From Dehalococcoidia bacterium (GTDB lineage Bacteria; Chloroflexota; Dehalococcoidia; Plut-88900): a DNA stretch of 64,000 bases. The DNA is taken from the NCBI GenBank assembly GCA_965207225.1, contig CBDBLV010000002.1, positions 378,095 through 442,094 on the forward strand, in the 5' to 3' direction. Position 1 is the stretch's first letter. Each line of letters opens with the position of its first letter. Below are positions 12,177 through 49,104 of the stretch, piece after piece. The position numbers were made by a program, and so were the translations under genes. The notes beneath the pieces are model-generated. The model did no database searches, had not been told where the DNA came from, and saw only the letters and a list, made by a program, of their open reading frames with translations.

Positions 12177-12266
12177 GGAGGGATGGCCGAGCGGTTTAAG
12201 GCACCGGTCTTGAAAACCGGCGTGCGCGTCAGTGTACCGTGGGTTCGAATCCCACTCCCTCCGCCA
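12177..12266 (+). tRNA. tRNA-Ser (TGA)
   Basis: GGAGGGA acceptor pairs with TCCCTCC; CCGGT-CTTGAAA-ACCGG anticodon arm; long variable arm; GTTCGAATC T-loop; encoded CCA. Confidence 0.97.
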
Positions 12267-12366
12267 CTACACCTCTTTTGGTCATCCTCTTTTTTCTCAA
12301 GTTACGCTTGCTCCAAAGCTAATATCATCCTTTGTGGTGCTTTGTCCCGCCCTCCTAATCTTTTGA

Positions 12367-12401
12367 GTTCCCACAACAACTGTGGTAACATTCGTGGGAA
12401 C
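12367..12401. repeat. Inverted repeat upstream of the integrase (candidate arm-type sites)
   Basis: GTTCCCAC at 12367 and GTGGGAAC at 12394. Confidence 0.5.
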
Positions 12402-12425
12402 AATTTAGGATTGATGGAGGTATCT

Positions 12426-14448: not shown

Positions 14449-17400
14449 TTGAAAATCGGTGGAGTTGACTTCCCTGAACCTCTTCTGAACGCCCTTAGAG
14501 ACGGGCGTGTGGTGGTGTTCGCAGGTGCCGGCGTGTCCATGGGACAACCGGCATGTTTGCCCGACTTTCGCCGATTGGCCGAGCAAATAGCGGAAGGAAC
14601 CGGTCAATCCAAAAGCGACGCAGAAACTGAGGACCGCTTCTTGGGAAGATTGAAAGACGCCGGTACTGATGTCCACCAGCGGGCGGCTGAAATTCTGCAA
14701 CGAAACAATCCCGAACCTACCACCCTCCATCTGAACTTATTACGACTCTTCAGAGAACCGGAAGCCGCGCGAGCGGTTACCACTAACTTCGATGACCTGT
14801 TCGAGCGCGCAGCTTGCGGCGAGTTCGACTCTAAGATCAGAGTATTTCAGGCACCGGCATTACCATTGGGCAACCGTTTTCACGGCATTGTTCATCTGCA
14901 CGGTTCAGTGGATGAACCTCATGATATGGTCCTCACGCACCGGGATTTTGGACGCGCCTATCTGACAGAATCGGACGGTTGGGCGCGCCGCTATTTGATT
15001 GATCTCTTTGCCAACTACACCGTGATGTTCGTGGGCTATAACCACAGTGACACGATAATGACCTACCTGACGCCGTCGCTGCCTCCGGATGGCGGCCTGC
15101 AACGTTTCGCGCTGATAGGCGACCAAATTGATGATCCCACTCGGTGGCAGAGGATGGGCATAGAACCTGTTACCTTCCAGCAAGCTCACGCCAACGACTT
15201 CGACGGCTTGGATGTGGCTGTGGCTGGGTTGGCCAATTTCCTACAACGCGGGGTCCTTGACTGGCAGCGCGAAATTTCCGCCATTGCCGACAAGAGCCCA
15301 CCCATTGATGACGAAAGCGTCGGAAAGATTAAACACGCCCTAGGCGACCCAATAACGACGAGGTTTTTCATCGAGTCCGCCAATGCACCGGAGTGGGTCG
15401 AGTGGCTTGACCGCGCTGGTCATTTGGCGAAGCTATTCACCGATGGAGAACTTAACGAACGAGATCATACCCTTGTTCGGTGGTTAGTCTCCCGTTTCGC
15501 CATAAACCACGACAGTACGCTTTTCACACTCTTCGAACGCTACAATAACCGCCTAAACCCATCACTGTGGCGGCAACTGTGTTGGCAGATGCAAGACAGC
15601 ATCCCCCAGTCACCGGATGCTGCGGTAATGACGCGATGGGTCCTTTTCCTGGCCTACGTCATCCCAACGGATGCCGACGATATCACTTTGTCTTGGCTAG
15701 CTGAAGCCTGCGCCAGTATCCGCGCAACCGATAGCCTACTGCGAGTATACGAAGCATTGATGAAGGGGCTCACTCCAGTGCCGCCGCGTCCCGAGCGGCG
15801 TAACCCCAATATGTCTCGCTATTTTGCCCAAAAGATTTTGTCAGACTGTATCAAGCCTAACCTATCCGAGATGTCCGAATCGCTGCTGGCGCTGGTCACC
15901 ATGCGGTTGAAAGAGCGCCATTCGATTTTGGTTGCCTGGGAGCGCGGTGATGCGACTTCGGATTGGGACAGCTTCAGCAGGTCGGCCATCGAACCACACC
16001 TGCAGGATGATCTGGACCGGGATATAGACCCACTGATCGACGCCGCGCGGGAATGCTTGGAGTGGTTGGCAACCAATGCTCCGGTGGTTGCGGGAGCTTG
16101 GTGCGACCGCTTTGCCAGTTCCAACGCGCCATTGTTGAGACGTCTGGCTATCCATGCGTTGGCCGCCCGGAACGACCTGACTGCGGACGACAAAATTGCA
16201 TGGCTGCTGGAACGATGCGATGTGAACGAAATAGCCACTCACCACGAGATTTTCCACGCTTCTGCCCTTCAGTACCCAAAAGCCAGCCCAGAGCAAAGGT
16301 CGGAGCTTATCCAAGCAATCTCTAGGTACCGAGTGCCGAAAAGCAAGCGCTACGATAGCGAAATGTTATCAGCGCACCACATTTTCACTTGGTTCTACTG
16401 GCTACATCGTTCTGATCCGGGTTGCAACACAATCAAAGAGGCACTGGACACAGTCTGGGCCGAGAATCCGCAGTTCGTGGCACCGGAGAATCCCGATCTC
16501 ACTCACTATCACTGGTCCGGAGCCCGGTCGCCCACTCAAAACACTTGGGAAGTCGGAGCGCTCCTCGTACGGCAGGCAGCGGAACTATTGCCGGAATTGT
16601 TGACATACGAACCGACCGATCAGCAATTGTTCGACGGAAATGACCGCTGGGCGATGCTGAACTCGGTCAGGCAAGCCGCCGAGGTCAACCCGTTTTGGGG
16701 ACTTGATCTAGCAGACGCCATGGTCGAATTCGGGGCATGGGACTCAGATCTGTGGCAATACGTACTGACTGCTTGGACGACAAAGGAGTTCGACCAAGAG
16801 GGCGTGAAACGTGTGCTCACCCACCTATCAGCTAGCGAGTTGCACCGGCAACATCCGGGTGAAATCGCCGACATCCTCAGTAAACTGGTCAAAAGGACTG
16901 CATCAGCAGCGACTGGATTACCCGGCGCGGCTAATGCGATAGCCGCAGCCTTACGTCCATACGCCTCTTTGGACAAGCTCCCCGAAATTACCGCGTACGT
17001 AGGCGGAGATCCACTGTACGTTAGCTGGCTAGACAGGGCTATCAATCATGCATCCGGCCAATTGGCCCTGTTTTGGATACACAGCATTGTACTGTGGCGT
17101 AAGCTGCAAGACCCCGCGCCGCAGTCGCTAAGCACTGATTACCGCGAGGCATTGGATGCCATCGTCGAAGAAGACGGCGTACTTGGAAAATTTGGCCGCA
17201 CCGTGCTCGCCAGCAACTTTCATTTCTTTCTTGCCGTTGATGAGGATTGGGCAATCAAGAACCTGCTTCCGCTTTTTGACATCCAACACGAAGATTTTCG
17301 GTGTGCGTGGGATGGTTTTCTTTCTTGGGGACGTTTGTCCCCGCAGATTACGGATCTCTTACGCGACAATTTCATAAACGCTATTCCACGGGTTATCCGA

Positions 17401-17973
17401 GAATTCCAAGGAAATACTCTGACCCGCTTCGTAGAATTCTACGTTGCTGCAATGAGTTGGCTTATCGTCGGAGCCAACGATAATTGGATTACGGAGTATT
17501 TCAAATACGCAGACATAGAGGCAAAGACCCAGATTGCAATTGCAATTGGCCATGTTCTGAGCGACCTTGACGAGAGCAAGCAAAAGGAATGGTGGAGCGT
17601 GTGGCTCAAGGATTACTGGCAGAATCGCCTACAGGGGGTACCCAGCCGTCTGGATGATGCGGAGATTGCACGGATGCTCGAGTGGATTGTCCATTTGCCG
17701 GGAGTATTCTCTGAGGCTGTGGGAATGGCAATACAGATGCGTCCGGTTACCCTAACTGATTCATACATTTTGCACGACCTCCAAGAGAGCGACCTGATAG
17801 AACGGTTTCCTAATGATCTAGCCAAGTTCCTCGTCCATCTGGGGCGACAAAACACTGACCCGTGGTTTTGGGCTGGCGCCCGAGAAGTCATTGACAAGTT
17901 GCTGGCAAAGGATCTGCAACCAGACTTGAACCAAGGGTTACTTGAGCTCATCGCCAAACACAACCTGAGTTAA
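14449..17973 (+). CDS. Long SIR2-domain protein (DUF4020/Dsr-like), putative anti-phage NADase
   Basis: FAGAGVS, TTNFD, HLHGS and FVGY SIR2_2 motifs followed by about 900 aa of helical, Trp-rich region. Confidence 0.85.
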   Translation: MKIGGVDFPEPLLNALRDGRVVVFAGAGVSMGQPACLPDFRRLAEQIAEGTGQSKSDAETEDRFLGRLKDAGTDVHQRAAEILQRNNPEPTTLHLNLLRLFREPEAARAVTTNFDDLFERAACGEFDSKIRVFQAPALPLGNRFHGIVHLHGSVDEPHDMVLTHRDFGRAYLTESDGWARRYLIDLFANYTVMFVGYNHSDTIMTYLTPSLPPDGGLQRFALIGDQIDDPTRWQRMGIEPVTFQQAHANDFDGLDVAVAGLANFLQRGVLDWQREISAIADKSPPIDDESVGKIKHALGDPITTRFFIESANAPEWVEWLDRAGHLAKLFTDGELNERDHTLVRWLVSRFAINHDSTLFTLFERYNNRLNPSLWRQLCWQMQDSIPQSPDAAVMTRWVLFLAYVIPTDADDITLSWLAEACASIRATDSLLRVYEALMKGLTPVPPRPERRNPNMSRYFAQKILSDCIKPNLSEMSESLLALVTMRLKERHSILVAWERGDATSDWDSFSRSAIEPHLQDDLDRDIDPLIDAARECLEWLATNAPVVAGAWCDRFASSNAPLLRRLAIHALAARNDLTADDKIAWLLERCDVNEIATHHEIFHASALQYPKASPEQRSELIQAISRYRVPKSKRYDSEMLSAHHIFTWFYWLHRSDPGCNTIKEALDTVWAENPQFVAPENPDLTHYHWSGARSPTQNTWEVGALLVRQAAELLPELLTYEPTDQQLFDGNDRWAMLNSVRQAAEVNPFWGLDLADAMVEFGAWDSDLWQYVLTAWTTKEFDQEGVKRVLTHLSASELHRQHPGEIADILSKLVKRTASAATGLPGAANAIAAALRPYASLDKLPEITAYVGGDPLYVSWLDRAINHASGQLALFWIHSIVLWRKLQDPAPQSLSTDYREALDAIVEEDGVLGKFGRTVLASNFHFFLAVDEDWAIKNLLPLFDIQHEDFRCAWDGFLSWGRLSPQITDLLRDNFINAIPRVIREFQGNTLTRFVEFYVAAMSWLIVGANDNWITEYFKYADIEAKTQIAIAIGHVLSDLDESKQKEWWSVWLKDYWQNRLQGVPSRLDDAEIARMLEWIVHLPGVFSEAVGMAIQMRPVTLTDSYILHDLQESDLIERFPNDLAKFLVHLGRQNTDPWFWAGAREVIDKLLAKDLQPDLNQGLLELIAKHNLS

Positions 17974-18344
17974 GAATCTGCGGAAAGTTGCGGTAAGGTG
18001 TTGTGGGAAGTTTCGGGAAGCGGTAACGCCTCCACTGGCTGATCTTCAATTTGAATCCCGGAATGGCTGCACAGGCAAACCCAAGCGGATCAAATCCACG
18101 AAGCCGTCTGTAACATTCCGAAATCCAGGAAGTGGTAAGACATACTGTGTATGGATTCAAACTCAGAACCAAAGCGGTAAGGAATTCTGTATCCCGCCGC
18201 CCTTCCACCCTCTCCATATCGCATCCCGCTAAGCCTCAGTAAGGAGACCACGCCTGAGCCGACGGGAAGTGCTTCACAACACCAGTGTTCTAATCGGCCC
18301 CTGTGATATCCTTGCGATACCCTCGCACCTGGAGGCGTCGTTTG

Positions 18345-18794
18345 GTGCACATCAAAGTTCCGCCGCACGGCAAAGTAATCGGACACATCGATCCCCATAA
18401 TCTCACCCCAAAGCAGAAAGAGATTTACAACCGCCAGATAGTGGCCGGACACTTGGCCCGGTTCGGGTTCAACTGCATAAAGCTGGATGACGACTGGCAG
18501 GGAGCTGATTTTTTGGCTTACCATTTCGACGGGGAAACTACCCTGAGGGTCCAGCTTAAGGCTCGAGTCACAATTGACCAGAAATACCGAGGAAAAGACG
18601 TCTGGATGTGCTTCCCGATCTACAAGCGCACACGAGGCGGCTGGTTTTTGGTCCCGCACGATGAGCTGCTAGCGATTGTTGGGGAGTGTACGGGTTGGCT
18701 GAATACACAGGCTTGGACTTCCGGGAACTATAGTAGTGGGAATCCGCCGGTGAAGCTGATGGACCAGCTTCTGGACTACAGGATAGCACTCTAG
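18345..18794 (+). CDS. Hypothetical protein, PD-(D/E)XK nuclease-like
   Basis: GADFLA...VQLKAR motif; GGAGG upstream of the TTG/GTG start. Confidence 0.6.
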   Translation: MHIKVPPHGKVIGHIDPHNLTPKQKEIYNRQIVAGHLARFGFNCIKLDDDWQGADFLAYHFDGETTLRVQLKARVTIDQKYRGKDVWMCFPIYKRTRGGWFLVPHDELLAIVGECTGWLNTQAWTSGNYSSGNPPVKLMDQLLDYRIAL

Positions 18795-19079
18795 GGGAGA
18801 CCTGACACGGAGTTCTCAGTTCGTCAAGCGCGCAACGGAATCTCCGATATAATGCCCCTTACGACAGGGCGGTGCCTGAGGCTAAAGGAGTGCTGACATT
18901 ACTCTCACGATTTAGAGAAGAGAATATAGAGATGGAAGCGTGGTTTCCCACGAAACTCTTAGGTGAGCCTGACCATGCCTTCATCTTTCCCCATCCCTTT
19001 GATGTAGCGTAGTTAGGGACTTACTTCGAACATCCCACAGTCCTATTCTCAGATTCTCAGATGGGGTGAAGTAGCGACA

Positions 19080-22000
19080 ATGACTCTTGCAACCGACGGC
19101 AATATAGTCGACATCCTTCGGGACTTTGGTGGCGACCCACAAAGGGCCGACAGCTTGGCCGCGTTCCTGGGTTTCGAACCGGTCTCAAGCCCGGAGGACC
19201 GCCTCGCTGGCGCGCTCTCCGGAGGGTTGAAACAATTCCTTCGGGGAAGTGGCGACAGAGGGTTTGACGTAAGTGAACTCTACCGCGTCGGAGGCCGGAA
19301 GGCAGACCCGGCGGAGGCAGGTCTATGGGTCGGGGTGCTTTCTGACTGGGGTCATCGGTCGTCAGATAGAGACCGCTCACGGCGGCGCATCACCCGCGCC
19401 CTCGTGGAACACGTACCTGATAGACGTGCTCTTGCACTGCTGGTCCCTCCCTCCACCAACCCGCGCCGCGAGGCCGAACTCGTTTTTCCCCGGACCCAGG
19501 TCGGCGCATCCAACGGCGCCGTGACGAGCGTCCGCGCTCACCTAGACCTCGACAACCCCACCCGGTTCCACCGGGACCTGCTAAGGGGGTTACGCATCAC
19601 TCCCGGCGCGAATCTTCTGGAAGTATCCAGGCTGTGGCAGCAGCAATTCAGTGTTGAGCGCGTCACCACCAGGTTCTACCATGAGTATGCCGCCGTCCGG
19701 GACCGTATAGCCAAGGCACTCTTAGCTGACAACCCGGACCATCCCGTAATCACTTCTCTCGGGGAGGAGGAGGCCCGCGCTTGGGCCACCCGACAGATGG
19801 GCCGGGTGCTCTTTCTTTGGTTCCTTCAGGCCAAGCGCTGGCTAGGAGCGCCCGGAGGGATGGGTTCGCCTACTTACTTGCTGAACCTTTGGTACAAGCG
19901 GGCAGAGACGCAAGAGGGCGAATATTATCGCGGCATCCTAGCCCCGATGTTCTTCGATGCGATGGCGACGGGAAGCAGCAGCCGGGGAGAGCATCCGGTC
20001 TTAGGCTTTGTACCTTATCTGAACGGCGGCCTGTTCCGCCGAAACGTTCTAGAGGACCGCATCGACGACGCGGGAGAGGTCTCCCTGCCGGACGAGGTGT
20101 TCGACCCCGATGCGGACAATGAAGAAGGCCAGCAGCAAACTCTCCTCGGCCTGCTTTCCCGCTATCGATTCACTACTAGGGAGTCAACGCCGGACGACCA
20201 GTCCGTTGACCCCGATCCGGAGCTTCTAGGCAGGGTATTCGAGAACCTATACCAAGGCGACGAGCGTCACGACACCGGCACCTACTACACACCCAGAGAG
20301 ATCGTCCACTTCATGTGCCGCGAGGTCTTGGACGGCTACCTGCGAGACGAAACAGGCGTCGACCAAGGTACCCTGGACAGCCTTCGCCAGGAAGCTGTCG
20401 GCTCTAGGGACGAGCATCAGCCCCTCTCAGGTATCCCCGCTGACGCCCTAATAGATGCGTTGGAAACCATCCGGGTGTGTGACCCGGCCGTCGGCTCCGG
20501 GGCATTTCTCTTAGGGGCCATCCAGGAGATGGTGGCCCTGCGTCGAGGAATTCTATTCTCTCAGCGAAGCTACGTCGAACCCCATGAGCTCTACCAGATG
20601 GTGAGTGAATGGAAGCGTCGCATCATCGAGAACAGCCTGTACGGAGTGGACATCAATCCGGAGGCTGTAGAGATATGCCGTCTGCGTCTCTGGCTCTCTA
20701 TGGTGCTGGACATGGACGAACCGCCTAATCCCAACTCAGATTGGGCGCTCCCCAATCTGGATTTCCAAATCCTTGCTGGCGACACCCTAGTGGACGGGAT
20801 AGCAGGTGTGGCCTTCAAGGAGTCCTGGCCCACACCCAGGGGCCTGCAGTTGGACATGGAACTCCAAGACAGCCTACAGAGACTGGAGCGAAACATCGAC
20901 CATCGGAGGCGAGAGTTCGAGAGGACACACAGAAACCCGAGACGCCTCCGGGAGTTGAGGGACCTCATTGCCAGGGACCAACGTGAAATCATCCTCTTGC
21001 ACCTAGCCGACGGGCTGAAGAGGGCCGAGGAGAAGTTGGAAACCCTGAGAAAGAGCGAGAAGCCTTCCAAAGCCGCGCTGAGCAGGGCTCAGCGCTTTAT
21101 AGAACGCATTCGTTCCCTGCTGGATGGTGTGCTGTCGACTGACTTCACAATGGTGCAAAAACCCTTTCTATGGCCCGTCGCCTTCCCCGAAGTCTTGCGT
21201 CAAGGCGACCCAGACGCAGGTTTCCACGTCGTGTTGGCCAACCCGCCTTACGTGAGGATGGAGAGAATTGACAACGAGGACGAACTCTTCTATGGAGAGG
21301 CCTTCCCGGAGGTGGTCGCGTCTCGGGCGGACATCCTCGTCTACTTCTACGCACGCGCCTTGCAGATACTCCGACCAGGCGGCTGGTTGTCTTTCATTAC
21401 CAGCAACAAATTCATGCGGGCGGGGTATGGAGCCGGAACACGTGAGCACCTCCCCGCTTCACTCCGTATCCAGCGGGTCGTCGACTTCGGTGACTTACCC
21501 CTCTTCGAGGCCAATGGCAGGGCCATAGCCGCATATCCGGCCGTGCTGGTGGGCAGCCGACATAAAGACACATCGGAACATGCCCTGAGAGTCGCAAACT
21601 TGGCCGGTCCCGTCCACAGGGAACTTTCCGACGCTGGCCTGAAGGTCAACACCGAGAACGTGCGTGGCGTACTGGAAGACTTAGACGGCCTACTAGCGAG
21701 AGCTGAAATACGGGACTTCCCTCAAGTGATGCTGAATAAAGACAGTTGGGTTCTGGAAGACCCTGCCCTGGTACGCCTCTTTGAGCGGTTAATGGCATCA
21801 GGCACGTCGTTGAGCAAGTTCGTTAGGGGGCGAATTTACAGAGGAGTAACTACGGGACTCAACGAGGCGTTCGTCATAGACCAGGCCAAGCGTGATGAGT
21901 TGGTAGAAGAGGACCCGCACAGCACGGATCTCATCAAGCCGTGGCTACGGGGTCGAGACATCAAGCGTTGGAAAGCGGATTCGCCTGGCCTCTACATCAT

Positions 22001-22706
22001 CTTTACCAATCGAGGGGTGGACATTAGCAAATATCCAGCAATTGAAGGTCACTTACGGTGGTTCCGAAATGATCTTGAGAATCGGGCTACGGCACACTTA
22101 CACCCGTGGTATGAACTTCAACAGCCACAAGAGGGCCTATATCACGAATTCGCCCACCCAAAGATTATCTTTAACCGGTTCGTGATTTCGCCCACTTTCG
22201 CATATGACAAGTCAGGGTCTTATCACAACGATGCCTGCTACTTTGTTATCCCGCCAAGTCCCTCAATAGCAGCAATCGTGAACTCGACTGTTGGTTGGTG
22301 GCTGCTATTGCATCTCTGCACAGCACTCCAGAATGGCTACATCCAAGTCTTTGTGCAATTCTTGCAGCAACTTCCGATTCCGGCACTCTCAGAAGACGTC
22401 GACAACCTTCTTGCTCAGCATGTCGAGACCTTGGCGAAGGGCATTGATGCTCCTGATATTGAGAGAGAAATCGATACCATCATTTTTGAAGCCTACGGCC
22501 TATCAGTTAACGAACGTAAGCTGATCCTAGACTGGCTGGGAGACCGGCGGGAGGCTCTTGGCGTGGAGATGTCCCCGGACTGGAGGAAACTCAACGCGCT
22601 GAGAGCAACGGCGGGTGCTTGGAAGGGCAGCATCGACGGGAATAAGCTGATTGAAGACATCTACGCTAGCCGGCTTATAGACACACGGCCCGAGCCGAGG
22701 CTTTGA
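19080..22706 (+). CDS. Eco57I/TaqI-like N6-adenine DNA methyltransferase with TaqI_C-type specificity domain and antitoxin-like C-terminal tail
   Basis: YLNGGLF, GTYYTP, CDPAVGSGAF, NPPY and LRGRDIKRW motifs; about 58 extra residues after the usual EID..YGL end. Confidence 0.9.
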   Translation: MTLATDGNIVDILRDFGGDPQRADSLAAFLGFEPVSSPEDRLAGALSGGLKQFLRGSGDRGFDVSELYRVGGRKADPAEAGLWVGVLSDWGHRSSDRDRSRRRITRALVEHVPDRRALALLVPPSTNPRREAELVFPRTQVGASNGAVTSVRAHLDLDNPTRFHRDLLRGLRITPGANLLEVSRLWQQQFSVERVTTRFYHEYAAVRDRIAKALLADNPDHPVITSLGEEEARAWATRQMGRVLFLWFLQAKRWLGAPGGMGSPTYLLNLWYKRAETQEGEYYRGILAPMFFDAMATGSSSRGEHPVLGFVPYLNGGLFRRNVLEDRIDDAGEVSLPDEVFDPDADNEEGQQQTLLGLLSRYRFTTRESTPDDQSVDPDPELLGRVFENLYQGDERHDTGTYYTPREIVHFMCREVLDGYLRDETGVDQGTLDSLRQEAVGSRDEHQPLSGIPADALIDALETIRVCDPAVGSGAFLLGAIQEMVALRRGILFSQRSYVEPHELYQMVSEWKRRIIENSLYGVDINPEAVEICRLRLWLSMVLDMDEPPNPNSDWALPNLDFQILAGDTLVDGIAGVAFKESWPTPRGLQLDMELQDSLQRLERNIDHRRREFERTHRNPRRLRELRDLIARDQREIILLHLADGLKRAEEKLETLRKSEKPSKAALSRAQRFIERIRSLLDGVLSTDFTMVQKPFLWPVAFPEVLRQGDPDAGFHVVLANPPYVRMERIDNEDELFYGEAFPEVVASRADILVYFYARALQILRPGGWLSFITSNKFMRAGYGAGTREHLPASLRIQRVVDFGDLPLFEANGRAIAAYPAVLVGSRHKDTSEHALRVANLAGPVHRELSDAGLKVNTENVRGVLEDLDGLLARAEIRDFPQVMLNKDSWVLEDPALVRLFERLMASGTSLSKFVRGRIYRGVTTGLNEAFVIDQAKRDELVEEDPHSTDLIKPWLRGRDIKRWKADSPGLYIIFTNRGVDISKYPAIEGHLRWFRNDLENRATAHLHPWYELQQPQEGLYHEFAHPKIIFNRFVISPTFAYDKSGSYHNDACYFVIPPSPSIAAIVNSTVGWWLLLHLCTALQNGYIQVFVQFLQQLPIPALSEDVDNLLAQHVETLAKGIDAPDIEREIDTIIFEAYGLSVNERKLILDWLGDRREALGVEMSPDWRKLNALRATAGAWKGSIDGNKLIEDIYASRLIDTRPEPRL

Positions 22707-22710
22707 AGAA

Positions 22711-23103
22711 GTGAAATATCTGGTGGATACGGACTGGATAATCCTTCACTTCCGTGGCAATAGAGAAGTGGCTCGGCGCCTGGAAGAGTTGACGCCCGAT
22801 GGGATTGGCCTGAGCATAGTATCGATGGGCGAACTCTATGAGGGGGTGTATAAGGCCTCGGACCCTACGGGGAATGAGAGAGCGTTGCGATTGATACTCT
22901 CTGAGATCGACGTGGTTCACATAGACGATGAAGTGTCCAGGATATACGGGCAGCAAAGCGGCAGGTTAAGAACTGCCAATGCTCTCCCTGGCAATAACGA
23001 CATTTGGATAGGGGCTACGGCTTTGCGTCACGACCTCACGTTACTCACGAACAATAGACGCCACTTTGAACGGATGCAGGGGCTGAGCATCGTTTCGGTG
23101 TAG
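22711..23103 (+). CDS. vapC: PIN-domain toxin (VapC), no separate antitoxin gene
   Basis: YLVDTDW, GELYEG, NDIWIGATAL and LTNNRRHF motifs. Confidence 0.92.
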   Translation: MKYLVDTDWIILHFRGNREVARRLEELTPDGIGLSIVSMGELYEGVYKASDPTGNERALRLILSEIDVVHIDDEVSRIYGQQSGRLRTANALPGNNDIWIGATALRHDLTLLTNNRRHFERMQGLSIVSV

Positions 23104-23148
23104 AGTAATTACGAGTTTGGCCCAAGCAACATTGGATGCAGAAAGCCA

Positions 23149-24420
23149 ATGCGAAGTGACCCGTCTGTAAAGCAACTCTATGTGGCGGAGGTGAAAGCGC
23201 CCTCTTATTTCCATGTGGAGAGTGAAGTCAGGGATCCGTTGCCTAACCCCGGTGGATTTGAAGTCAGTAAGGGATATTGGATAGTACGCCCACCTGACGA
23301 ACAATCTGCAGTTGAAGGATATGCTAACCTGGCCCTCACCATCCTTTTCTCCAGTAAGACACTCAAAGATGCTGAAGATCATGCCTTGAAAGTAGGCAGG
23401 TTGTTTAGTGATCTAACGTCTGCCTTCGGTGGATACCCCCTCGGTCCGCCACGCCTCAGTAGAATTGCCTCGGTTGATTTATCCGAGAAGCTGCTAACAC
23501 AGCACAACTACAGCTACGACGACCGACTGCATGAATCTCTAGGTGGGACGTTTGCCCCAATTGTCCAGCACCGATATCTGAGATACCTCGAGGCCTTCTC
23601 TTCCACCGATGGAGACACTAGATATCGGCTACAGTTGGCGCTGCATTGGTACGGAATTGCGGTTAGCGCCGATGATCCGATAGTCAGTTATGTGGCGGCA
23701 TGGACAGGTCTTGAGTGTATAGGCCTCGTGATGGACTTGAGGTTCCATACCCAAGGATCCAAAGCGCCCTGCCGAACCTGTGGAAATGAGGCGGGTAAGG
23801 ATAGAGACCGGACAATGGCAGGGATAGAGCACGGTTTCAATTCCGAGACAATTGAACCGATAGAGGGTTTCTCACACGAGAAGGCTCATCAGCTACGCAA
23901 CGATGTTGTGCATGGCTTGAGGCCGAGGGAATTACTTGTGCAAGACTGTTCAACATTTAGGCAATTCCTGATTGATTTACTAAATGCAACTATTTTGACG
24001 GCGCTCTCTCCCCCGGAGTACAGCCAAGAGCAATCTATAAGATCGATTATGGCGGGAGACTATGAGAATCGACCTTGCTCTCGGGCGTCAATCAAATTCA
24101 GAATTGGACAAGTGTCGCCTTATCTGGGGGAGTGGATTCAAGGCAATGTGCGTAGACAATCCAGAAGAGGCACTTATGGCGACGGGAAACCTGATTTGGA
24201 GATAAGCATCAATTCGGCTTGGGGCATGAATGAGGAGCAATGCGCCTTTGTAGAAGCTCGCAGCTACGAGGAGTTCAGAAGATCAGGATTTGGGGAATAT
24301 CCCTTGCCAGACGGTAATAGCATGCCAGCGTTCATTCCATGGCAGGACAGACCATCGTGGCCCGCTTGGAAAAGCGTCTCCGGCAGATGGTGGGAGTCCG
24401 GGCAAGCACTACAAGTGTGA
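23149..24420 (+). CDS. HEPN-like (ApeA/MauJ-like) protein
   Basis: ALHWY...AWTGLE helix pair, CRTC insertion, RNDVVH (R-x4-H) motif. Confidence 0.6.
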   Translation: MRSDPSVKQLYVAEVKAPSYFHVESEVRDPLPNPGGFEVSKGYWIVRPPDEQSAVEGYANLALTILFSSKTLKDAEDHALKVGRLFSDLTSAFGGYPLGPPRLSRIASVDLSEKLLTQHNYSYDDRLHESLGGTFAPIVQHRYLRYLEAFSSTDGDTRYRLQLALHWYGIAVSADDPIVSYVAAWTGLECIGLVMDLRFHTQGSKAPCRTCGNEAGKDRDRTMAGIEHGFNSETIEPIEGFSHEKAHQLRNDVVHGLRPRELLVQDCSTFRQFLIDLLNATILTALSPPEYSQEQSIRSIMAGDYENRPCSRASIKFRIGQVSPYLGEWIQGNVRRQSRRGTYGDGKPDLEISINSAWGMNEEQCAFVEARSYEEFRRSGFGEYPLPDGNSMPAFIPWQDRPSWPAWKSVSGRWWESGQALQV

Positions 24421-24434
24421 CAGATAAGAGCGGC

Positions 24435-27400
24435 ATGACCTCTGAAAGCACTGACATCCATCCCATAGCTAATGAGTCGACCACCGGCTCGATGCGAGAG
24501 CATCTTGTGGGGGCGCTGTCCCGTGTAATCGCCCAGGACATCCGTATAGCAACAGCCTACCTCACTCCCGATGGCTTCCTGGACCTGAGGCACGGTATGG
24601 AAGGCGCCGCCAGCGTTCGGCTGTTGCTGGGGGAGCGGCCCTTCATGAATCGGCGTGGCCCGGGCGATGTTCTTTCCCAACCCGGCGACCATGACGAGCT
24701 TCAAGGCCCAGCCGAGTCAATCGACTGGTACACATTTCTTGACGGCGGGTACCCCTGGTTGCTGCTCACCCACGAAGAACGTCGGGAGCTTCTATCCCGT
24801 GGCCTGACTCCCGAAGCGGCAGCCTTCGACCTTTCCGCGTGGGAGCGGGTCACTAAGCTGGCCGAGTTTCTGAGAAGGGACAGCGTCGAGGTTAGGCGGT
24901 TCCTGGGGTCCGATAAGGGCAAGGTACTGCCCGAAGAGGTGCTGGATCATCGCTCGCCCAGAAACCGGCTTCACGCAAAGGCGTATCTCTTCTCCGGCGA
25001 GATGGGGCAATATGCCACCGTCGGCTCCAGCAACCTCACCAAGAGCGGCCTATCCGAAAACTCCGAGCTGAATCTCGCCTCCTACGACCACGATCTGACG
25101 GTGCAACTGGAAGGCTGGTTCGACGAGAAATGGGAGCTTGGGCAGGACTGCAAAGCGCAGTTCATCCAGCGCCTAGAAGAATGTGTCCTGTTCGGGAGGC
25201 GCTACACCCCGTGGCAGGTCATGCTCAAGTCTCTGCACGCTGCCTACGGCCGGTTCCTGGAGATGGGGCTGTCTGAAGAGGTCATGGGGAGGCTGGCCGG
25301 GTTCCAGCAGCAGGCCGTCCAACGTTGCGTGGCACTGCTGAGGCGCCACTGGGGAGCCATGCTGTGCGACTCAGTGGGCCTCGGCAAGACCTACGAAGGC
25401 TTGGGCATCCTTCGGGAGTTCGCCAACCAGCGGAATGATGACCCGCAACGAGTGAGCACCTCGACGCGGGCGTTGATAGTCTGCCCCGCCCAGCTTCAGG
25501 ATAATTGGAGCGCCGACAGGTTCGCCGAGTGGGGAATCATCGCCACCACAGTCACTATGGAGTCTCTGCCCAGCCTCGCAGACATCGAGGATGAACCATC
25601 ACCCGTTCAACGGCAACGGCTCAGGTTCGAGTTGAAGCGTTACCAGGACCAGTACGATGTCATACTGGTAGACGAGTCTCACAACTTCCGCAACCCTAGG
25701 ACGAAGCGCTATCGCGCCCTCATGGAGATCATCCGAGGAGGCAAGCCGGACACCAGGGTGGTGTTGATGACAGCCACGCCCATCAACAACTCCGTCTGGG
25801 ACCTGTACCACCAGCTCATGCTCATCACGAGGGGAGATGACACTTGGTATGCGGGGCGAGGGCCGATACCCAACCTGAAAGCGGCGTTTCAAGCCATTGA
25901 GAAAGGGGAGTCCGACTCCGGCCTACTTGACGCCATGATGCTGTCTCTAGTTCGCCGGACCCGACATGACATACGGTCCATGCAGGAGGCGGGAGAGACG
26001 ATGGAGGTAAATGGGCAACCACTCCGGTTTCCGGAGCACGAGATACCGAAGGCGGTGGACTACAGCCTGCAAGGCCTGTACGGAAATATCTACCACGACA
26101 TCATCGACGCCATTGAGCACCTCAACTTCGCCGTCTACCGCCTGGATGAGTACGGTGTAGAGACAGGGGAGAAGGAGACCAGTGCACAACTGAGGCAACG
26201 CAATGCCAACTTCGTCGGCATCATGCGCACCATCCTCCTAAAGCGAATGGAGAGTTCTCTGGCTGCGCTCACATCCACGGTGAGAAGTCTTGTGGACTAT
26301 CTCAACCTCTTCCTGGGGAGGTTGGGACAAGATCGTGTCCTGACGCCCAAGCAAGCCTACAAGCTGAGGGGAGTGTTGGGAGGATCGTTGCCAGACCACG
26401 ATCAGGACATAGAGGACATGGACCCCAAGGCAGTGGCGGCATTGCAACAGGAGTTGGCCGCACCGGAGGACCTAGACCTTCGCGGGCGGTTGCAGGCCGA
26501 CGTGGAGTTCGACAGGGAGAGGCTTCAGACGTTGCTCACTCGACTTCAGTGGCTGGAGGAGATGCTAGCAGAACAGGGGGACCCCAAGGCCCAGGCCGTC
26601 CGCAAGCTGCTCGAAGGGCTTCCGAAAGAGGACAACCACGGGCAACCCACCAAGGTGGCCTTGTTTACGACGTACAAGGACACCGCTCAACACCTCTTCA
26701 AGCAGTTTGGCGGAGAAGTGGATGCTTTGAAAAGCGCCGTACGCGTTAAGAGCAATCTGGAGGACGCACGGTGGATGTCGCTGCTCACTGGAGGAGACGA
26801 CCAGAATCGGCGGCGCTTGGTGCTTGAGCGCTTCGCACCACTGGCAGCCCATCGAGAGACCGAACCTCTGGACAACACAGCCTTGCTGAAGAAGATAGGA
26901 CCTTTGAGAGCTCAGGGCATCGAACTGTTGATAGCTACGGATGTGCTTTCGGAGGGTCAGAACCTCCAAGATGCCCAGTTTCTGATCAACTACGACCTGC
27001 CTTGGAATCCGGTAAGAATGATTCAGCGGGCCGGTCGCATCGATCGTCTGTTCTCCCCCCATGACAAGGTGTACATCTACAACCTGATGCCCGAGGATGG
27101 CTTGGAGGACCTGCTGAATCTGGTTCAGAATCTAACCAGGAAGATTGAGGCCATTGAGGACGCGGTTGCTCTAGACGCCTCGGTGCTCGGAGAGCAGATC
27201 GAGGCTAAGGAACTAGACAAGGTGATGAAGCTGCGCGCCGGCGGCGTCCAGGCAGATCAGGTATACCGCGAGGGAGAGCGCAGCCAGGGGCTGGACGAGG
27301 GAGCGGAACTGCTGAATAGGTACCTGGACATGATGAAAGAGTTCGCCACAGAGGATGTGAAGGATATTCCAAACGGGGTATACAGTGTGAAGAAGGGCAT

Positions 27401-28016
27401 GGTCAACGGAGTCTACATCATGCTGAAAATGCCCGAAGAAGCATCGGGCGAAGTGTTCTGGCGATTTTACCCCGTGGGCAATGTGGCGCAGCCGATGACG
27501 TCGCCAAACGATGTCCTATCGATTGTGGAGGCCAGCAGAGACGAACACCGCTTCGAGATCCCGTCTGATGATAACCCATTCAAGAACTTGACCGAACCCC
27601 TGAAAGCCGCCGTCGACCAGATCGGCAGAGCATACTTGGACGCCATATCCGCAGTAACTTCTGACAGCTTCACGAAGCGCATCAGGCAGTTCCTCAATCG
27701 TGATGATCTACTGCAATCTCAACCTGATTTGTTCAAATTCTTCAACGACTGGGTTGAGATGCCATTGCCTTCTGACGCAACCAGGCGGGTAGGAATGAGA
27801 GATCCTGTTCGAGTCATGAACCAGCTTACGCCAACTCGCGCAGAGTTGGGCCAAGTGGTTCAAGCACTGATTCCCCTTCGAGAAGCTATCAGGGCTGAGG
27901 GTCTTGACCGCCCTATCGCACGACCCGAGACCAAGAAGCCATCGGTAGAGGACTTGGAGCTAGTGGCGTGGGAGCTTGTAGTCGGGCCGGACGGCTTGTC
28001 GGCGGAGCCTAGATGA
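24435..28016 (+). CDS. PLD-nuclease domain-SNF2-like helicase
   Basis: LHAKAY...GSSNLT PLD motif; DSVGLGKT, DESH, TATP, LSEGQNLQ and QRAGRIDR helicase motifs. Confidence 0.92.
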   Translation: MTSESTDIHPIANESTTGSMREHLVGALSRVIAQDIRIATAYLTPDGFLDLRHGMEGAASVRLLLGERPFMNRRGPGDVLSQPGDHDELQGPAESIDWYTFLDGGYPWLLLTHEERRELLSRGLTPEAAAFDLSAWERVTKLAEFLRRDSVEVRRFLGSDKGKVLPEEVLDHRSPRNRLHAKAYLFSGEMGQYATVGSSNLTKSGLSENSELNLASYDHDLTVQLEGWFDEKWELGQDCKAQFIQRLEECVLFGRRYTPWQVMLKSLHAAYGRFLEMGLSEEVMGRLAGFQQQAVQRCVALLRRHWGAMLCDSVGLGKTYEGLGILREFANQRNDDPQRVSTSTRALIVCPAQLQDNWSADRFAEWGIIATTVTMESLPSLADIEDEPSPVQRQRLRFELKRYQDQYDVILVDESHNFRNPRTKRYRALMEIIRGGKPDTRVVLMTATPINNSVWDLYHQLMLITRGDDTWYAGRGPIPNLKAAFQAIEKGESDSGLLDAMMLSLVRRTRHDIRSMQEAGETMEVNGQPLRFPEHEIPKAVDYSLQGLYGNIYHDIIDAIEHLNFAVYRLDEYGVETGEKETSAQLRQRNANFVGIMRTILLKRMESSLAALTSTVRSLVDYLNLFLGRLGQDRVLTPKQAYKLRGVLGGSLPDHDQDIEDMDPKAVAALQQELAAPEDLDLRGRLQADVEFDRERLQTLLTRLQWLEEMLAEQGDPKAQAVRKLLEGLPKEDNHGQPTKVALFTTYKDTAQHLFKQFGGEVDALKSAVRVKSNLEDARWMSLLTGGDDQNRRRLVLERFAPLAAHRETEPLDNTALLKKIGPLRAQGIELLIATDVLSEGQNLQDAQFLINYDLPWNPVRMIQRAGRIDRLFSPHDKVYIYNLMPEDGLEDLLNLVQNLTRKIEAIEDAVALDASVLGEQIEAKELDKVMKLRAGGVQADQVYREGERSQGLDEGAELLNRYLDMMKEFATEDVKDIPNGVYSVKKGMVNGVYIMLKMPEEASGEVFWRFYPVGNVAQPMTSPNDVLSIVEASRDEHRFEIPSDDNPFKNLTEPLKAAVDQIGRAYLDAISAVTSDSFTKRIRQFLNRDDLLQSQPDLFKFFNDWVEMPLPSDATRRVGMRDPVRVMNQLTPTRAELGQVVQALIPLREAIRAEGLDRPIARPETKKPSVEDLELVAWELVVGPDGLSAEPR

Positions 28017-29035
28017 GGCAATGGAGTCCCGGACGCCGAACGGAGGCTATTCCCGAAAAGGCCTGGGACCCTGTGCAGTGGGAGAATGACCTTCCCTTTA
28101 GAATCCTGTCGATTGATGGTGGTGGCATAAGGGGAATCTTTCCGGCGGCAGTCCTTACCTACCTGGAGCAGGAGCGCCTCCAGGGTAAGAGCATTGGAGA
28201 CTACTTCGACCTGATTGCCGGCACGTCGACGGGCGGCATTCTCGCCTTGGGATTGGGCGCGGGGTTAACCGCTGGCGAGATTCTTCAAATGTACCTTGAG
28301 GAGGGACATCGAGTGTTCCCCTCGGGAGGTAGAGGGCCAATAGGCAGGGCCAGGAGGTTGGTCTCGGCCCAGTACGACCGTAGGCACCTCGATGAACTGC
28401 TATCTCAGAGGCTTGGCAACAAGACGCTGAGAGGGTCAAAGTACCGCCTTCTGATTCCTTCGACGGAGGGGCGTAACGGAGGGGTCTATGTCTTCAAGAC
28501 CCCGCATCACCCGGGCTATATCCTTGACGGCGATGAGCGGATGAGTGCGGTGGCAGCTGCGACGTCCGCGGCGCCAACCTACTTTACCTCCTTCGAGCAA
28601 GGCGGATACACGTTTCTCGACGGTGGCATCTGGGCCAACAATCCCACGATGATCGCACTGGTGGAGGCCCTCTCCCGCTTCACTACGCTGCGTGAAGACA
28701 TCAGGGTATTCAGCATCGGCTGCGGCCAGAAGCCGTTTCAGGTCACCGAAGGACAGGCCAGGAACTCAGGCATGGTGCATTGGCGGAGCATCATAGACGT
28801 GGCTATGCACCTTCAATCGGTCACAGCGTTGAACCAAGCTGGCCTGCTGATTGGGAGGGAGCATGTAACCAGGCTGGATCGACCTGACGGAAGCAGGCCC
28901 ATCGATCTGGACGATTGGAAGAAAGCAAAGGATTTTCTGCCCGTTGAAGCCCAGGAGGTCGTTCGCGATAGTGCAAGCCATTTGGCGCAGACCTTCCTAA
29001 CCCACCCTGCCCTGCCGTTCACTCCGCTGGCCTAA
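28013..29035 (+). CDS. CBASS patatin-like phospholipase effector (CapV-like)
   Basis: DGGGIRG, GTSTG and DGG motifs; adjacent to a CD-NTase. Confidence 0.9.
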   Translation: MRQWSPGRRTEAIPEKAWDPVQWENDLPFRILSIDGGGIRGIFPAAVLTYLEQERLQGKSIGDYFDLIAGTSTGGILALGLGAGLTAGEILQMYLEEGHRVFPSGGRGPIGRARRLVSAQYDRRHLDELLSQRLGNKTLRGSKYRLLIPSTEGRNGGVYVFKTPHHPGYILDGDERMSAVAAATSAAPTYFTSFEQGGYTFLDGGIWANNPTMIALVEALSRFTTLREDIRVFSIGCGQKPFQVTEGQARNSGMVHWRSIIDVAMHLQSVTALNQAGLLIGREHVTRLDRPDGSRPIDLDDWKKAKDFLPVEAQEVVRDSASHLAQTFLTHPALPFTPLA

Positions 29036-29052
29036 TCTCCATAGGGCGCTTG

Positions 29053-29934
29053 ATGAAGCTAAATCGTCTGTTCAGAGAGTTCCTTCGGGATGAAGTCAAC
29101 CCCAACAGGGATAGGCTTGGCAGGCTATATGTTGGTATAAGAGGTGTGAAGCGCCACCTTGAGACGAATTTGAAGGGATACCAGAGAATCGACCGGCAGG
29201 GGTCGCTTGGCTTAGACACACTCATCAAGCCCGTCCGAGACGATGATGAATATGACGCCGATATCCAAGTCGTAATAGACCCTACGCCCGACTGGGAGCC
29301 CAGAGATTACTTCCAAGCACTTAGCGAAACACTGGCCCAGAACGGTAACTACACAGACAAGATTCGCCTAGGGACCCGCTGCGTCACCCTGGAATTCGCT
29401 AGTAACTTTCACCTCGACATGGTCCCCAGGATCACCAAAGATGGTACCCACCTCATCTGCAATCGGGCGACGAACTGCTTTGAACCGACTGATGGAACGG
29501 GATTCCGAGACTGGTTCAGCGATAAAAGCCGTATTACCAAGGTTAATTTGAAGCGGGTCGTGAGATTGCTAAAGTACCTCAGGGACCGCCAGGACAACTA
29601 CGTTGCAAAGTCCATCCTACTCACCACACTGGCCGGGAACACCATACGATCTTCTGACCGGGGAAAAGAGTCTGTGAGGACTGTGGCGAATACTCTGACT
29701 ACGGTCCTGACTAGGATGGATCGCTATTTGCAAAAGAACCCGACAATGCCGCGAATTGAGAACCCTGCCTTATCATCGGAAGACTTCAACAGGCACTGGG
29801 ACCAAGACAGATATAGCTACTTCAGAAATCGTGTTCACTCCCACACTGCGATAGCTCAGAAAGCCCTGGCTTCGCCGACAATCGAGGACTCGATAAGGCT
29901 CTGGAGAAGGCTGTTCGGCGAGGTCTTCGGCTAG
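29053..29934 (+). CDS. cGAS/DncV-like nucleotidyltransferase (CD-NTase, SMODS)
   Basis: QGS...T.IKP, YDADI, HLDMVP, VRLLKYLRD and terminal WRRLFGE motifs. Confidence 0.88.
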   Translation: MKLNRLFREFLRDEVNPNRDRLGRLYVGIRGVKRHLETNLKGYQRIDRQGSLGLDTLIKPVRDDDEYDADIQVVIDPTPDWEPRDYFQALSETLAQNGNYTDKIRLGTRCVTLEFASNFHLDMVPRITKDGTHLICNRATNCFEPTDGTGFRDWFSDKSRITKVNLKRVVRLLKYLRDRQDNYVAKSILLTTLAGNTIRSSDRGKESVRTVANTLTTVLTRMDRYLQKNPTMPRIENPALSSEDFNRHWDQDRYSYFRNRVHSHTAIAQKALASPTIEDSIRLWRRLFGEVFG

Positions 29935-42949: not shown

Positions 42950-42951
42950 CG

Positions 42952-44115: not shown

Positions 44116-44129
44116 GATTCCTCCTCGTC

Positions 44130-46260: not shown

Positions 46261-46266
46261 ACTTCC

Positions 46267-49068: not shown

Positions 49069-49104
49069 TTCCAGACCGCCTTGAGTAGGATTCCCTGTGG
49101 ATTA

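Follow-up and report, generated by a model that had tools for sequence, protein, structure and literature searches.

Several described systems tie an RNase toxin to a small protein or to a defence complex. In canonical VapBC type II toxin-antitoxin pairs, a small VapB antitoxin with an N-terminal DNA-binding (AbrB, RHH, Phd or HTH) domain binds and neutralises, through its C-terminal region, a PIN-domain RNase called VapC that is encoded immediately downstream. [quoted passage not shown] In CreTA, the CRISPR-repressed toxin-antitoxin, neutralisation of the toxin depends on a defence-system component, so that the cell is addicted to that component (PMC9458426). PIN RNases have also been proposed as "backup suicidal effectors" inside BREX and BREX-related (BR) operons (PMC12839542). 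A locus in a Dehalococcoidia bacterium (assembly GCA_965207225.1) appears to combine elements of these designs. A large DNA methyltransferase of a restriction-like system ends in the short module normally found at the C-terminus of small VapB antitoxins and is followed directly by a vapC gene. The locus lies in a 64,000-nt stretch of contig CBDBLV010000002.1 (positions 378,095 to 442,094, forward strand), referred to here as the window. Its features are as follows.

19080-22706 (+): 1208-aa N6-adenine DNA methyltransferase with specificity domain (Eco57I + TaqI_C; type IIG-like / DrmMI-like), carrying the antitoxin-type tail at its C-terminus
22530-22586 (+): linker (residues 1151-1169), whose first part is still native methylase C-terminus; the fusion junction lies at about residues 1163-1169
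22587-22703 (+): VapB-type module, toxin-binding by homology (residues 1170-1208; invariant G1179, W1181 and R1198; near-invariant A1178, D1186 and R1203)
22704-22710 (+): stop codon TGA (22704-22706) plus a 4-nt spacer (22707-22710), a canonical toxin-antitoxin operon junction
22711-23103 (+): 130-aa VapC (PIN-domain RNase toxin by homology), GTG start, conserved acidic residues present
23149-24420 (+): 423-aa protein of no known family, in a variable cargo slot between VapC and the helicase
24339-28016 (+): HKD (PLD) nuclease + SNF2 helicase, the presumed restriction partner of the methylase; the true start is probably the ATG at 24435

An earlier note, made from the sequence alone, had described a methyltransferase with an antitoxin-like tail of about 58 aa directly upstream of an orphan VapC, and this observation is confirmed. 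The methylase is a single ORF, and no other ORF of 40 aa or more on the + strand lies between it and vapC, so "orphan" is correct in that no separate antitoxin gene is present at the locus. The methylase matches Pfam Eco57I (2.3e-33), N6_Mtase, MmeI_Mtase and TaqI_C (4.4e-8), and the PADLOC profiles REase_MTase_IIG (5.7e-91) and DrmMI (2.5e-43). Its recognised domains end before the tail: TaqI_C matches residues 954-1100, PADLOC type IIG profiles end at residues 1146-1149, and TIGR02987 ends at residue 1150. However, the closest tail-less relatives still align up to query residue 1156-1167. The antitoxin-derived piece is thus the last ~40 residues (1170-1208) and not all 58, which corrects the note. 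Methyltransferase and target-recognition domains lie in one chain, as in type IIG enzymes. Solved relatives exist only for residues 715-1141 (CamA 7lni, BseCI 7qw5), and residues 1-380, where an endonuclease domain was sought, match no Pfam family and no solved chain. An AF2 model of the full-length protein (32-row alignment) reached only pLDDT 49.9 and pTM 0.29, too poor to be searched or to bear on the N-terminal domain or the accessibility of the tail.

The resemblance of the tail to antitoxin tails is far beyond chance. An HMM built from 24 small-antitoxin tails, with no methylase rows, scored the methylase frame at E=9.7e-16 among 1282 six-frame segments of the window, where the next best segment scored E=0.88, and at E=5.7e-14 among 75159 segments of the whole genome. 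Other searches returned little. Pfam and NCBIfam assigned no family to the 58-aa tail alone, a word-indexed search with the tail alone found only three fragments of related methylases, a single-sequence search of the same genome found only the tail itself, and the tail profile had no significant relative among solved structures (best E=1.4). Further evidence comes from the neighbours of related vapC genes. Of 49 VapC loci in the genome contigs searched, 44 have a tail-module ORF abutting vapC, of which 39 are small and 5 are methylases of >1000 aa. The profile behind this count contains many of the rows it counts, and the independent figures are those of the small-tail HMM and of a metagenome scan. 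In that scan, VapC found 39 loci, none above 55% identity and none with a methylase fusion, and 37 of the 39 have a small tail-module ORF. Small-antitoxin loci have the same junction with vapC, either a 4-nt overlap or a gap of 2-8 nt. The residue conservation given above is from an alignment (A1) of 28 of the 44 tail-bearing loci; a second alignment, A2, used 26 loci.

The module is an antitoxin module. An exhaustive profile search found 1026 representatives at E<=1e-3, almost all of them small proteins with the module at their extreme C-terminus. Among the top 150, the N-domains are AF2212-like in 32, Phd/YefM in 9, UPF0175 in 2, and MazE, RelB-like, DUF2281, VAPB_antitox, RHH_7 and PrlF in 1 each. 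AF2212/COG2880 is a predicted PIN antitoxin (PMC2701414). Of 67 longer proteins bearing the module, 47 (counted as protein clusters) are Eco57I/TaqI_C methylases. Fifteen methylase-tail proteins are short and may be contig-end cuts or decayed methylases that keep the tail, as an addiction role would predict. Two long candidates were rejected: a 938-aa hit (P0212) is a false positive from a Bsp-like repeat, and a 307-aa frame at locus G208 is a long stop-to-stop frame around an ordinary small antitoxin.

The downstream gene is a PIN domain (PF01850, E=2.9e-13) that matches solved VapC structures (6nkl 1e-13, 3zvk 3e-10, 3tnd 4e-7). In 27 orthologues D6 and D97 are invariant and D8 and E41 nearly invariant; these acidic residues are the catalytic residues of VapC. 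The closest curated families are the tRNA(fMet)-specific endonucleases VapC (NCBIfam NF047863 / NF010285; the closest match is the Leptospira VapC, tRNA-fMet type), but the scores of 77.8 bits against a cut-off of 140 and 36.9 bits against 143 fall short of membership, so that both the toxicity and the RNA target of this VapC are inferred.

The fusion is conserved. Eight loci with DNA context, from different genomes and all from Dehalococcoidia (the window and the loci designated L002-L005, L019, G331 and G383), share the order methylase-tail, VapC, 0-4 cargo genes, HKD-SNF2, and the seven other methylases with the same tail are 69-83% identical to that of the window. The HKD-SNF2 protein (Pfam PLDc_2, SNF2-rel_dom and Helicase_C; PADLOC HKD+Snf2 4.2e-52 and DrmD 3.8e-34) is 83-92% identical in all fused loci; its relatives align from residue ~30-42, hence the inferred later start. 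The cargo slot, by contrast, turns over. The 423-aa protein has no Pfam, NCBIfam or PADLOC hit and a homologue (52% identity) only in L019, while other loci carry different genes, including PDC-M24A/B in L004, or nothing (G331, G383). These findings argue against an assembly or read-through artefact, such as a lost stop codon or an indel in one assembly. The six aligned junctions have no indels in the tail-coding part, and contigs from runs of two studies match the junction with 0-1 differences and no indels. No evidence in favour of an artefact was found, and as far as sequence data can show it is refuted.

The fusion is also derived. The two closest tail-less methylases (52-58% identity) end without the module and are followed directly by the HKD-SNF2 gene (68-71% identical), with no VapC. 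The methylase-linked VapCs are nested among VapCs that have small antitoxins. This tree used 39 of the 49 loci plus the window; L037, L039, L040, L042, L044, L045, L047, L049 and L050 were not entered because they are partial or redundant, and L046 was dropped for an in-frame stop.

Could the tail be a neutral remnant of a decayed toxin-antitoxin operon, beside a VapC that is inactive, harmless or held by another antitoxin in trans? VapC does score below the NCBIfam cut-offs, one other weak tail-like ORF exists in the genome, and many chromosomal VapBC pairs have no known role. However, dN/dS is 0.02-0.19 for the tail, 0.10-0.21 for the methylase body and 0.11-0.21 for VapC, across pairs whose synonymous sites are near saturation, which indicates purifying selection. 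The PIN acidic residues are kept, and tail and VapC stay together in 8 of 8 loci. The other tail-like ORF, the only other module hit in the 4.03-Mb genome (E=0.0045), sits upstream of its own distant VapC paralogue. An uncoupled passenger therefore appears improbable.

Another possibility is internal initiation, in which the tail is made mainly as a free ~45-aa peptide from an in-frame ATG at residue 1164 (nt 22569). That peptide would be an ordinary, domain-less antitoxin whose gene merely overlaps the 3' end of the methylase gene, and the methylase would be irrelevant to VapC. Met is present at this position in 41 of 44 fused proteins (a count from a regular expression on proteins P0003-P0072, which missed the methylases P0009, P0031 and P0054), a GGGAGG stretch lies upstream of it, and gene callers produced 74-97-aa products from related contigs (P0003-P0005). 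A separately translated tail peptide is hence not excluded. However, the position is Leu in the other 3 of the 44 proteins, Ile in G331 and Leu in G383, and the motif is absent from fragment P0128. The purine-rich stretch ends 14 nt before the ATG, and its bases are fixed by conserved Arg-Glu-Ala codons. All six aligned junctions keep the frame with the methylase, a constraint that would not be needed for a separate overlapping gene in a different arrangement. A promoter and terminator scan of 18700-24500 gave counts at shuffled expectation (3 against 3.4 and 4 against 4.1). The short products start at different places upstream of this Met and look like fragments of methylase genes. These results make internal initiation unlikely.

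Does the tail bind VapC? The evidence is a structure prediction. The predicted tail-VapC complex had an ipSAE of 0.76 (median of 3 runs) against 0.01 for the best control, a mark reached by 58 of 80 solved complexes and 2 of 110 mismatched pairs. The runs agreed in >=88% of contacts, and the partner pLDDT was >=67. The predicted interface uses tail residues 15-50 of the 58-aa piece and VapC residues 7-8, 41, 93-97, 115 and 118, around the conserved acidic residues of the PIN active-site region. This single prediction supports binding but does not show it. It was made with alignments built for this analysis, and VapBC complexes in general are in the training data, so part of the score may reflect family likeness.

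The best explanation is a model, to which a probability of roughly 75% is assigned, that a two-gene restriction-like system of a specificity-bearing N6-adenine methyltransferase and an HKD-nuclease/SNF2 helicase captured a VapBC operon between its two genes. In this model, an in-frame deletion removed the antitoxin's N-terminal DNA-binding domain and welded its ~40-residue toxin-binding module onto the methyltransferase C-terminus, while vapC kept its usual position 4 nt after the stop codon. The tail would wrap over the active-site face of VapC and keep the RNase silent; in other words, the methyltransferase itself would be the antitoxin. Because the tail is the last thing translated, only complete methyltransferase would neutralise VapC, and its deletion, truncation, degradation or sequestration would free an RNase, probably tRNA-directed judging by likeness to the initiator-tRNA VapC group. 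Homology of the tail, conservation of the fusion and of the gene order, purifying selection, the derived state of the fusion and a predicted interface are established by the analysis, whereas binding, neutralisation, toxicity, RNA target and any trigger are inferences from them. The usual antitoxin features of a DNA-binding domain and autoregulation are absent, and proteolytic lability would be unusual for a 135-kDa enzyme.

What the coupling may be for is less certain, and the present evidence does not discriminate among the possible roles. An addiction or safeguard module that protects the defence system, or its mobile island, against loss is slightly preferred, though at less than even odds; a guard that fires on phage attack on the methyltransferase comes next, and a selfish passenger without benefit to the host is the least favoured. 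The earlier note had proposed that the methylase is the antitoxin and that its loss, cleavage or inhibition, for example by a phage anti-restriction protein, frees the toxin. That interpretation is partly supported: homology to small antitoxins of this VapC subfamily, independent methylase-tail + vapC loci and a predicted tail-VapC complex, all named beforehand as tests, were found, but nothing in these results bears on a trigger. In the guard view, a phage factor that binds, unfolds or degrades the methylase exposes or removes the tail, VapC is freed and translation stops, as an abortive-infection back-up. In its favour, the toxin gene lies between the modification/specificity gene and the restriction gene, as prrC does in the EcoprrI locus. 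The locus also sits in a defence island with Dsr1, CBASS and CRISPR; no second copy of the tRNA-Ser end was found as an island boundary within 12150-45000. The slot next to VapC holds other defence candidates (PDC-M24 in L004). However, a covalently attached tail gives no obvious way for inhibitor binding at the DNA-binding cleft to release VapC, short of proteolysis. Canonical small-antitoxin pairs of the same subfamily occur widely outside RM contexts, and the module itself therefore carries no defence signature. The guard reading remains doubtful, and an addiction role explains the same anatomy equally well or better.

A more speculative and rather unlikely view is that the tail is a portable "dead-man's-switch tag" that evolution grafts onto defence enzymes, so that destruction, truncation or hijacking of the enzyme releases a VapC RNase, and that in phage infection the design would sense anti-restriction attack. 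The methyltransferase clade and a separate PD-(D/E)xK nuclease family, in which 5 of 33 members carry the same tail, would be two independent instances of a covalent guard-guardee design. A search of 401 genomes of the phylum for the P0207 nuclease family found one tail-less member only, in 1 of 401 genomes.

If the methylase really is the antitoxin, this is a natural case of a type II toxin leashed by covalent fusion to a component of an immune system. It would give a simple genetic answer to how costly defence systems resist loss, because any frameshift, nonsense mutation or deletion in the 3.6-kb methylase gene would remove the antitoxin. It would also give a clean, three-construct test of the guard idea for restriction systems, which has so far rested mainly on PrrC. 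The tail is short, modular and found on at least ten different carrier domains, and may be useful as a transferable addiction tag for containment or for plasmid and enzyme stabilisation. The host system, with its cargo slot between an Eco57I-type methylase gene and an HKD-SNF2 helicase-nuclease gene, is itself an uncharacterised restriction-like system. Searches for a methylase carrying an antitoxin tail, or for a VapB fusion, found no such description in the literature covered, which excluded most subscription journals and supplements.

How does this locus compare with the described systems? Class 1 DISARM has DrmA helicase and DrmB (DUF1998) beside DrmMI, DrmD and DrmC. The present locus shares a DrmMI-like methylase and a DrmD-like SNF2 protein with a PLD domain, but none of the ORFs scanned from 14449 to 29934 matches DUF1998 or has DrmA as its best family, and the core is a two-gene methylase + HKD-SNF2 module. 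Like BREX and BR loci, it embeds a PIN RNase in a methylase-based defence operon, and like type-2 BR systems it pairs an N6-methylase with an HKD+SNF2 helicase-nuclease. However, BR systems are built around DUF499 and DUF3780 (PMC12839542), and no DUF499, DUF3780 or DUF1156 hit was found in the scanned ORFs of the window or of the related loci; the main text of that paper mentions neither VapC nor Eco57I and has no passage on an antitoxin tail on the methylase. As with PrrC, an RNase toxin gene is embedded in an RM-like locus and would be kept latent by the methylase. The locus resembles PrrC in logic but is not a member, because the toxin is a 130-aa PIN domain only, and the masking element would be a covalently fused antitoxin tail, whereas PrrC is masked non-covalently and activated by a phage peptide. 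CreTA works through RNA and transcriptional repression by Cascade, while the coupling inferred here is a protein fusion with direct toxin binding. Canonical VapBC pairs of this subfamily have the same kind of VapC (35-57% identity), the same ~39-residue C-terminal module with invariant G, W and R and the same operon junction, but here the antitoxin's DNA-binding N-domain is replaced by an ~1170-residue DNA methyltransferase, and the pair has no operon of its own and lies inside an RM-like operon. Finally, in single-chain fused toxin-antitoxins such as CapRel an antitoxin element is likewise covalently attached to a larger protein, but there toxin and antitoxin are one polypeptide, whereas here the antitoxin module sits on an unrelated enzyme and the toxin stays separate.

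Two adjacent open reading frames (ORFs) on the + strand define the locus, and the second begins four bases after the stop codon of the first. The long ORF terminates with TGA at 22704-22706, and the short ORF that follows it starts with GTG.

19080-22706, + strand: 1208-aa N6-adenine DNA methyltransferase with a specificity domain
22587-22703, + strand: residues ~1170-1208 of the same protein, the VapB-type C-terminal tail module
22711-23103, + strand: 130-aa PIN/VapC protein

The long protein was identified as an N6-adenine DNA methyltransferase because it matched the Pfam families Eco57I (2.3e-33), N6_Mtase, and MmeI_Mtase, as well as TaqI_C at residues 954-1100. PADLOC type IIG profiles matched at up to 5.7e-91 and ended at residues 1146-1149, and the DrmMI profile matched at 2.5e-43. 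Solved relatives exist only for residues 715-1141 (CamA and BseCI). The short protein matched the PIN family PF01850 at 2.9e-13 and solved VapC structures at up to 1e-13. Its closest NCBIfam families are the initiator-tRNA VapCs, although it scored below their cut-offs (77.8 bits against 140). The earlier note, which described a TaqI_C-type methyltransferase with an extra tail of about 58 aa followed 4 bp later by an intact-looking VapC, is therefore accurate in its observation. The 58-aa tail alone matched no Pfam or NCBIfam family.

The nature of the tail was determined starting from the toxin. A relative of this VapC is encoded at 49 loci in contigs representing one genome per species, and in 44 of these an ORF carrying the same C-terminal module ends right at the vapC start. 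Of these 44 ORFs, 39 are small (48-224-aa frames) and 5 are methylases of >1000 aa. In an independent metagenome set, 37 of 39 VapC loci have a small upstream ORF with the module, and none has a large one. An alignment of 29 tails displayed invariant G, W, and R residues and near-invariant A, D, and R residues, and the methylase tails keep all of them. Furthermore, an HMM built from the 24 small-antitoxin rows alone found the methylase frame at E=9.7e-16 in the window, where the next best hit was 0.88, and at E=5.7e-14 in the whole 4.03-Mb genome. The only other tail-like ORF in this genome (contig C5, 349774-350510, - strand; E=0.0045) sits upstream of a distant VapC paralogue (68 bits), and seven further places match the VapC profile more weakly.

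An exhaustive profile search of 1.84 billion representative proteins returned 1026 proteins at E<=1e-3 and 134 at E<=1e-10. Among the best 150, nearly all are 42-175 aa in length with the module at the extreme C-terminus. Their N-terminal domains are AF2212-like in 32, Phd/YefM in 9, UPF0175 in 2, and MazE, RelB-like, DUF2281, VAPB_antitox, RHH_7, and PrlF in 1 each. AF2212/COG2880 was predicted long ago to be a PIN-associated antitoxin (PMC2701414). Some small antitoxins, such as the one at locus L036 of the VapC set, protein P0073, and other hits of the profile search with two matching stretches, carry two tandem copies of the module. The module is thus a shuffled, carrier-independent tail of the toxin-binding type, binding by the methylase tail itself being inferred.

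Not all of the 58-aa extension is foreign to the methylase. The closest tail-less methylases still align to query residue 1156-1167, and their C-termini resemble the first part of the linker that precedes the module. The acquired piece is therefore residues ~1170-1208 (nt 22587-22703), exactly the 39 positions of the profile.

The fusion is real, conserved, and derived. Eight loci with DNA context carry it: the window, five loci of the VapC set (L002-L005 and L019), and two genomes from a sample of the class (G331 and G383). Those with a named record are Dehalococcoidia, and G331 and G383 come from the same class. Across these loci, identity is 69-83% for the methylase, 51-87% for VapC, and 83-92% for a downstream HKD-SNF2 protein. 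Among longer proteins that bear the module, 47 of 67 are Eco57I/TaqI_C methylases, 32 of them of at least 1100 aa and 15 shorter, whereas the other 20 are proteins of 103-172 aa. In the sample of 401 genomes of the class, 61 have the module somewhere but only 3 have it in a frame of >1000 aa. Likewise, 46 have a methylase relative at E<=1e-30, and only the same 3 align through residue 1208. Within the window's own genus, 2 of 8 other genomes have the module, both on small ORFs. The cassette is therefore patchy, as expected for island cargo.

Further evidence for the fusion comes from the sequence of the junction. The six aligned junctions have no indels in the tail-coding part, and contigs from sequencing runs of two studies, one of which may be the source sample, reproduce the junction with 0-1 differences. 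The same sample also holds, in one run, a second, diverged methylase-tail/vapC junction of the same length at higher depth (aligned to window positions 22533-22760), suggesting that related strains carry the cassette. Pairwise dN/dS is 0.02-0.19 for the tail, 0.10-0.21 for the methylase body, and 0.11-0.21 for VapC, although these ratios are rough because many pairs have dS above 1. One possibility is that the tail is made as a free peptide from an in-frame Met at residue 1164. This reading is weakened, though not excluded, by the presence of Leu or Ile at that position in several members and by a poor ribosome-site geometry.

The two nearest tail-less methylases, from genomes G185 (locus L084; 58% identity) and G009 (locus L085; 52% identity), are each followed directly by the HKD-SNF2 gene (71% and 68% identity, respectively), with no VapC. 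This two-gene form, an Eco57I-type methylase directly followed by the HKD-SNF2 helicase-nuclease, appears to be an uncharacterised restriction-like system in its own right. In the VapC tree, five of the six methylase-linked VapCs form one clade (100/99). The sixth, from L019, groups with VapCs whose antitoxins carry another unknown N-domain (95/90). These antitoxins (L012, L013, L018, L040, and L045) are Dehalococcoidia proteins of 131-214 aa that carry the same tail on a ~100-aa N-domain with no Pfam match. All six methylase-linked VapCs are nested among VapCs with small antitoxins. It is concluded that a VapBC operon was inserted between the M and R genes of a two-gene system, and that the tail of the antitoxin was fused in frame to M.

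Does the tail bind VapC? The VapC alignment (27 rows) was folded together with the tail alignment (29 rows). The three runs scored 0.66, 0.79, and 0.76 (median 0.76), against 0.01 for the best of three controls. This mark was reached by 58 of 80 solved complexes and by 2 of 110 mismatched pairs. The runs agree in at least 88% of contacts, and the partner pLDDT is at least 67. The confident predicted interface uses tail residues 15-50 of the 58-aa piece and, among others, VapC residues 7-8, 11-16, 41, 93-97, 115, and 118, in other words the face bearing D6/D8, E41, and D97. The tail profile has no relative among solved chains by sequence. However, VapBC complexes as a class are known, and part of the score may reflect family likeness. 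The prediction supports binding but does not show it.

The methylase lies in an island whose features, in order, are as follows.

12177-13622: tRNA-Ser (anticodon TGA) at 12177-12266, directly followed by a tyrosine integrase with an arm-binding domain
14449-17973, + strand: 1174-aa SIR2-domain protein matching Dsr1 (PADLOC 2.5e-59; Pfam SIR2_2 and DUF4020)
19080-23103, + strand: the methylase with its tail, and vapC
23149-24420: 423-aa protein of unknown family, in a variable slot
24339-28016, + strand: 1225-aa HKD(PLD)+SNF2 protein as read from the first possible start
28013-29934, + strand: CBASS pair of a patatin-like phospholipase effector (5.1e-106) and a SMODS oligonucleotide cyclase (1.6e-94), starting 4 nt before the helicase stop codon
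downstream of the CBASS pair: a relaxase-like gene
about 33384-40200: large CRISPR array of about 111 copies of a 29-nt repeat with a 61-nt period, the ORFs listed inside it being spurious
40273-49884, - strand: long ORFs that may be cas genes

The island probably belongs to an integrative element, although no second att-like repeat was found up to position 45000. The HKD-SNF2 protein is the conserved partner of the methylase, and its start is probably the ATG at 24435 because relatives align from residue ~30-42. The gap between vapC and this gene is a variable cargo slot (at about 4900-7300 in L002-L005 and L019). It holds the 423-aa unknown in the window and L019, 311- and 164-aa proteins in L002 and L003 together with a DUF5678/aspartyl-protease pair in L002, PDC-M24A and PDC-M24B in L004, and a 573-aa unknown in L005, and it is empty in G331 and G383. 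The system is not class 1 DISARM, because no DrmA or DrmB lies in the locus (scanned ORFs from 14449 to 29934). Nor is it a type-2 BREX-related system, because there is no DUF499 or DUF3780 in the scanned ORFs of the window or of the related loci, although it shares the HKD-SNF2 effector type with those systems (PMC12839542).

The best-supported reading is that the methylase is the antitoxin. Because the tail is C-terminal, only completed methylase would neutralise VapC in this model. The homology of the tail and the conservation and derived state of the fusion are shown by the sequence comparisons, whereas binding, neutralisation of VapC, and any biological role are inferred. Two roles fit the anatomy, and sequence data do not separate them. 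In the first, an addiction or safeguard role, restriction probably needs the methylase for target recognition. This is inferred because the specificity domain lies in the methylase and Pfam finds only PLD and helicase domains in the HKD-SNF2 protein. Methylase-null mutants would then be viable but defenceless, and a fused antitoxin would penalise them, as CreTA does for Cascade (PMC9458426). In the second, the guard role put forward in the earlier note, phage attack on the methylase would free VapC, as with PrrC and EcoprrI (PMC1484252, PMC2610378). PIN RNases have also been proposed as back-up effectors in BREX-type operons (PMC12839542). The interpretation in the earlier note is thus partly supported, in that the evidence favors the methylase as the antitoxin but not the guard role over the safeguard role.

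The same tail has a second carrier. One top hit of the profile search, protein P0207 (375 aa), belongs to a family of 33 aligned proteins with invariant E-D...P-D...E-x-K residues. Five members (P0207 and P0223-P0226) end in the tail, and 28 end without it. The model of P0207 (pLDDT 88.3, pTM 0.85) matches archaeal Hjc resolvases (E 4e-6, TM to target 0.69-0.82), SPARDA nucleases, and, weakly (E about 0.02), EcoRV, indicating a predicted PD-(D/E)xK nuclease fold. If vapC follows there too, grafting of this tail onto nucleic-acid enzymes has happened at least twice.

A search of the literature, which did not extend to supplements or subscription journals, found no description of a VapB tail fused to a defence methyltransferase, and the text of the BREX survey (PMC12839542) has no occurrence of 'VapC' or 'Eco57I'. 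Modular antitoxins, toxins silenced by restriction-modification enzymes, and addiction to defence components are all already known. What differs here is that the VapB-type tail is carried by the methyltransferase of a restriction-like system, an arrangement that is of good interest because it is immediately testable.
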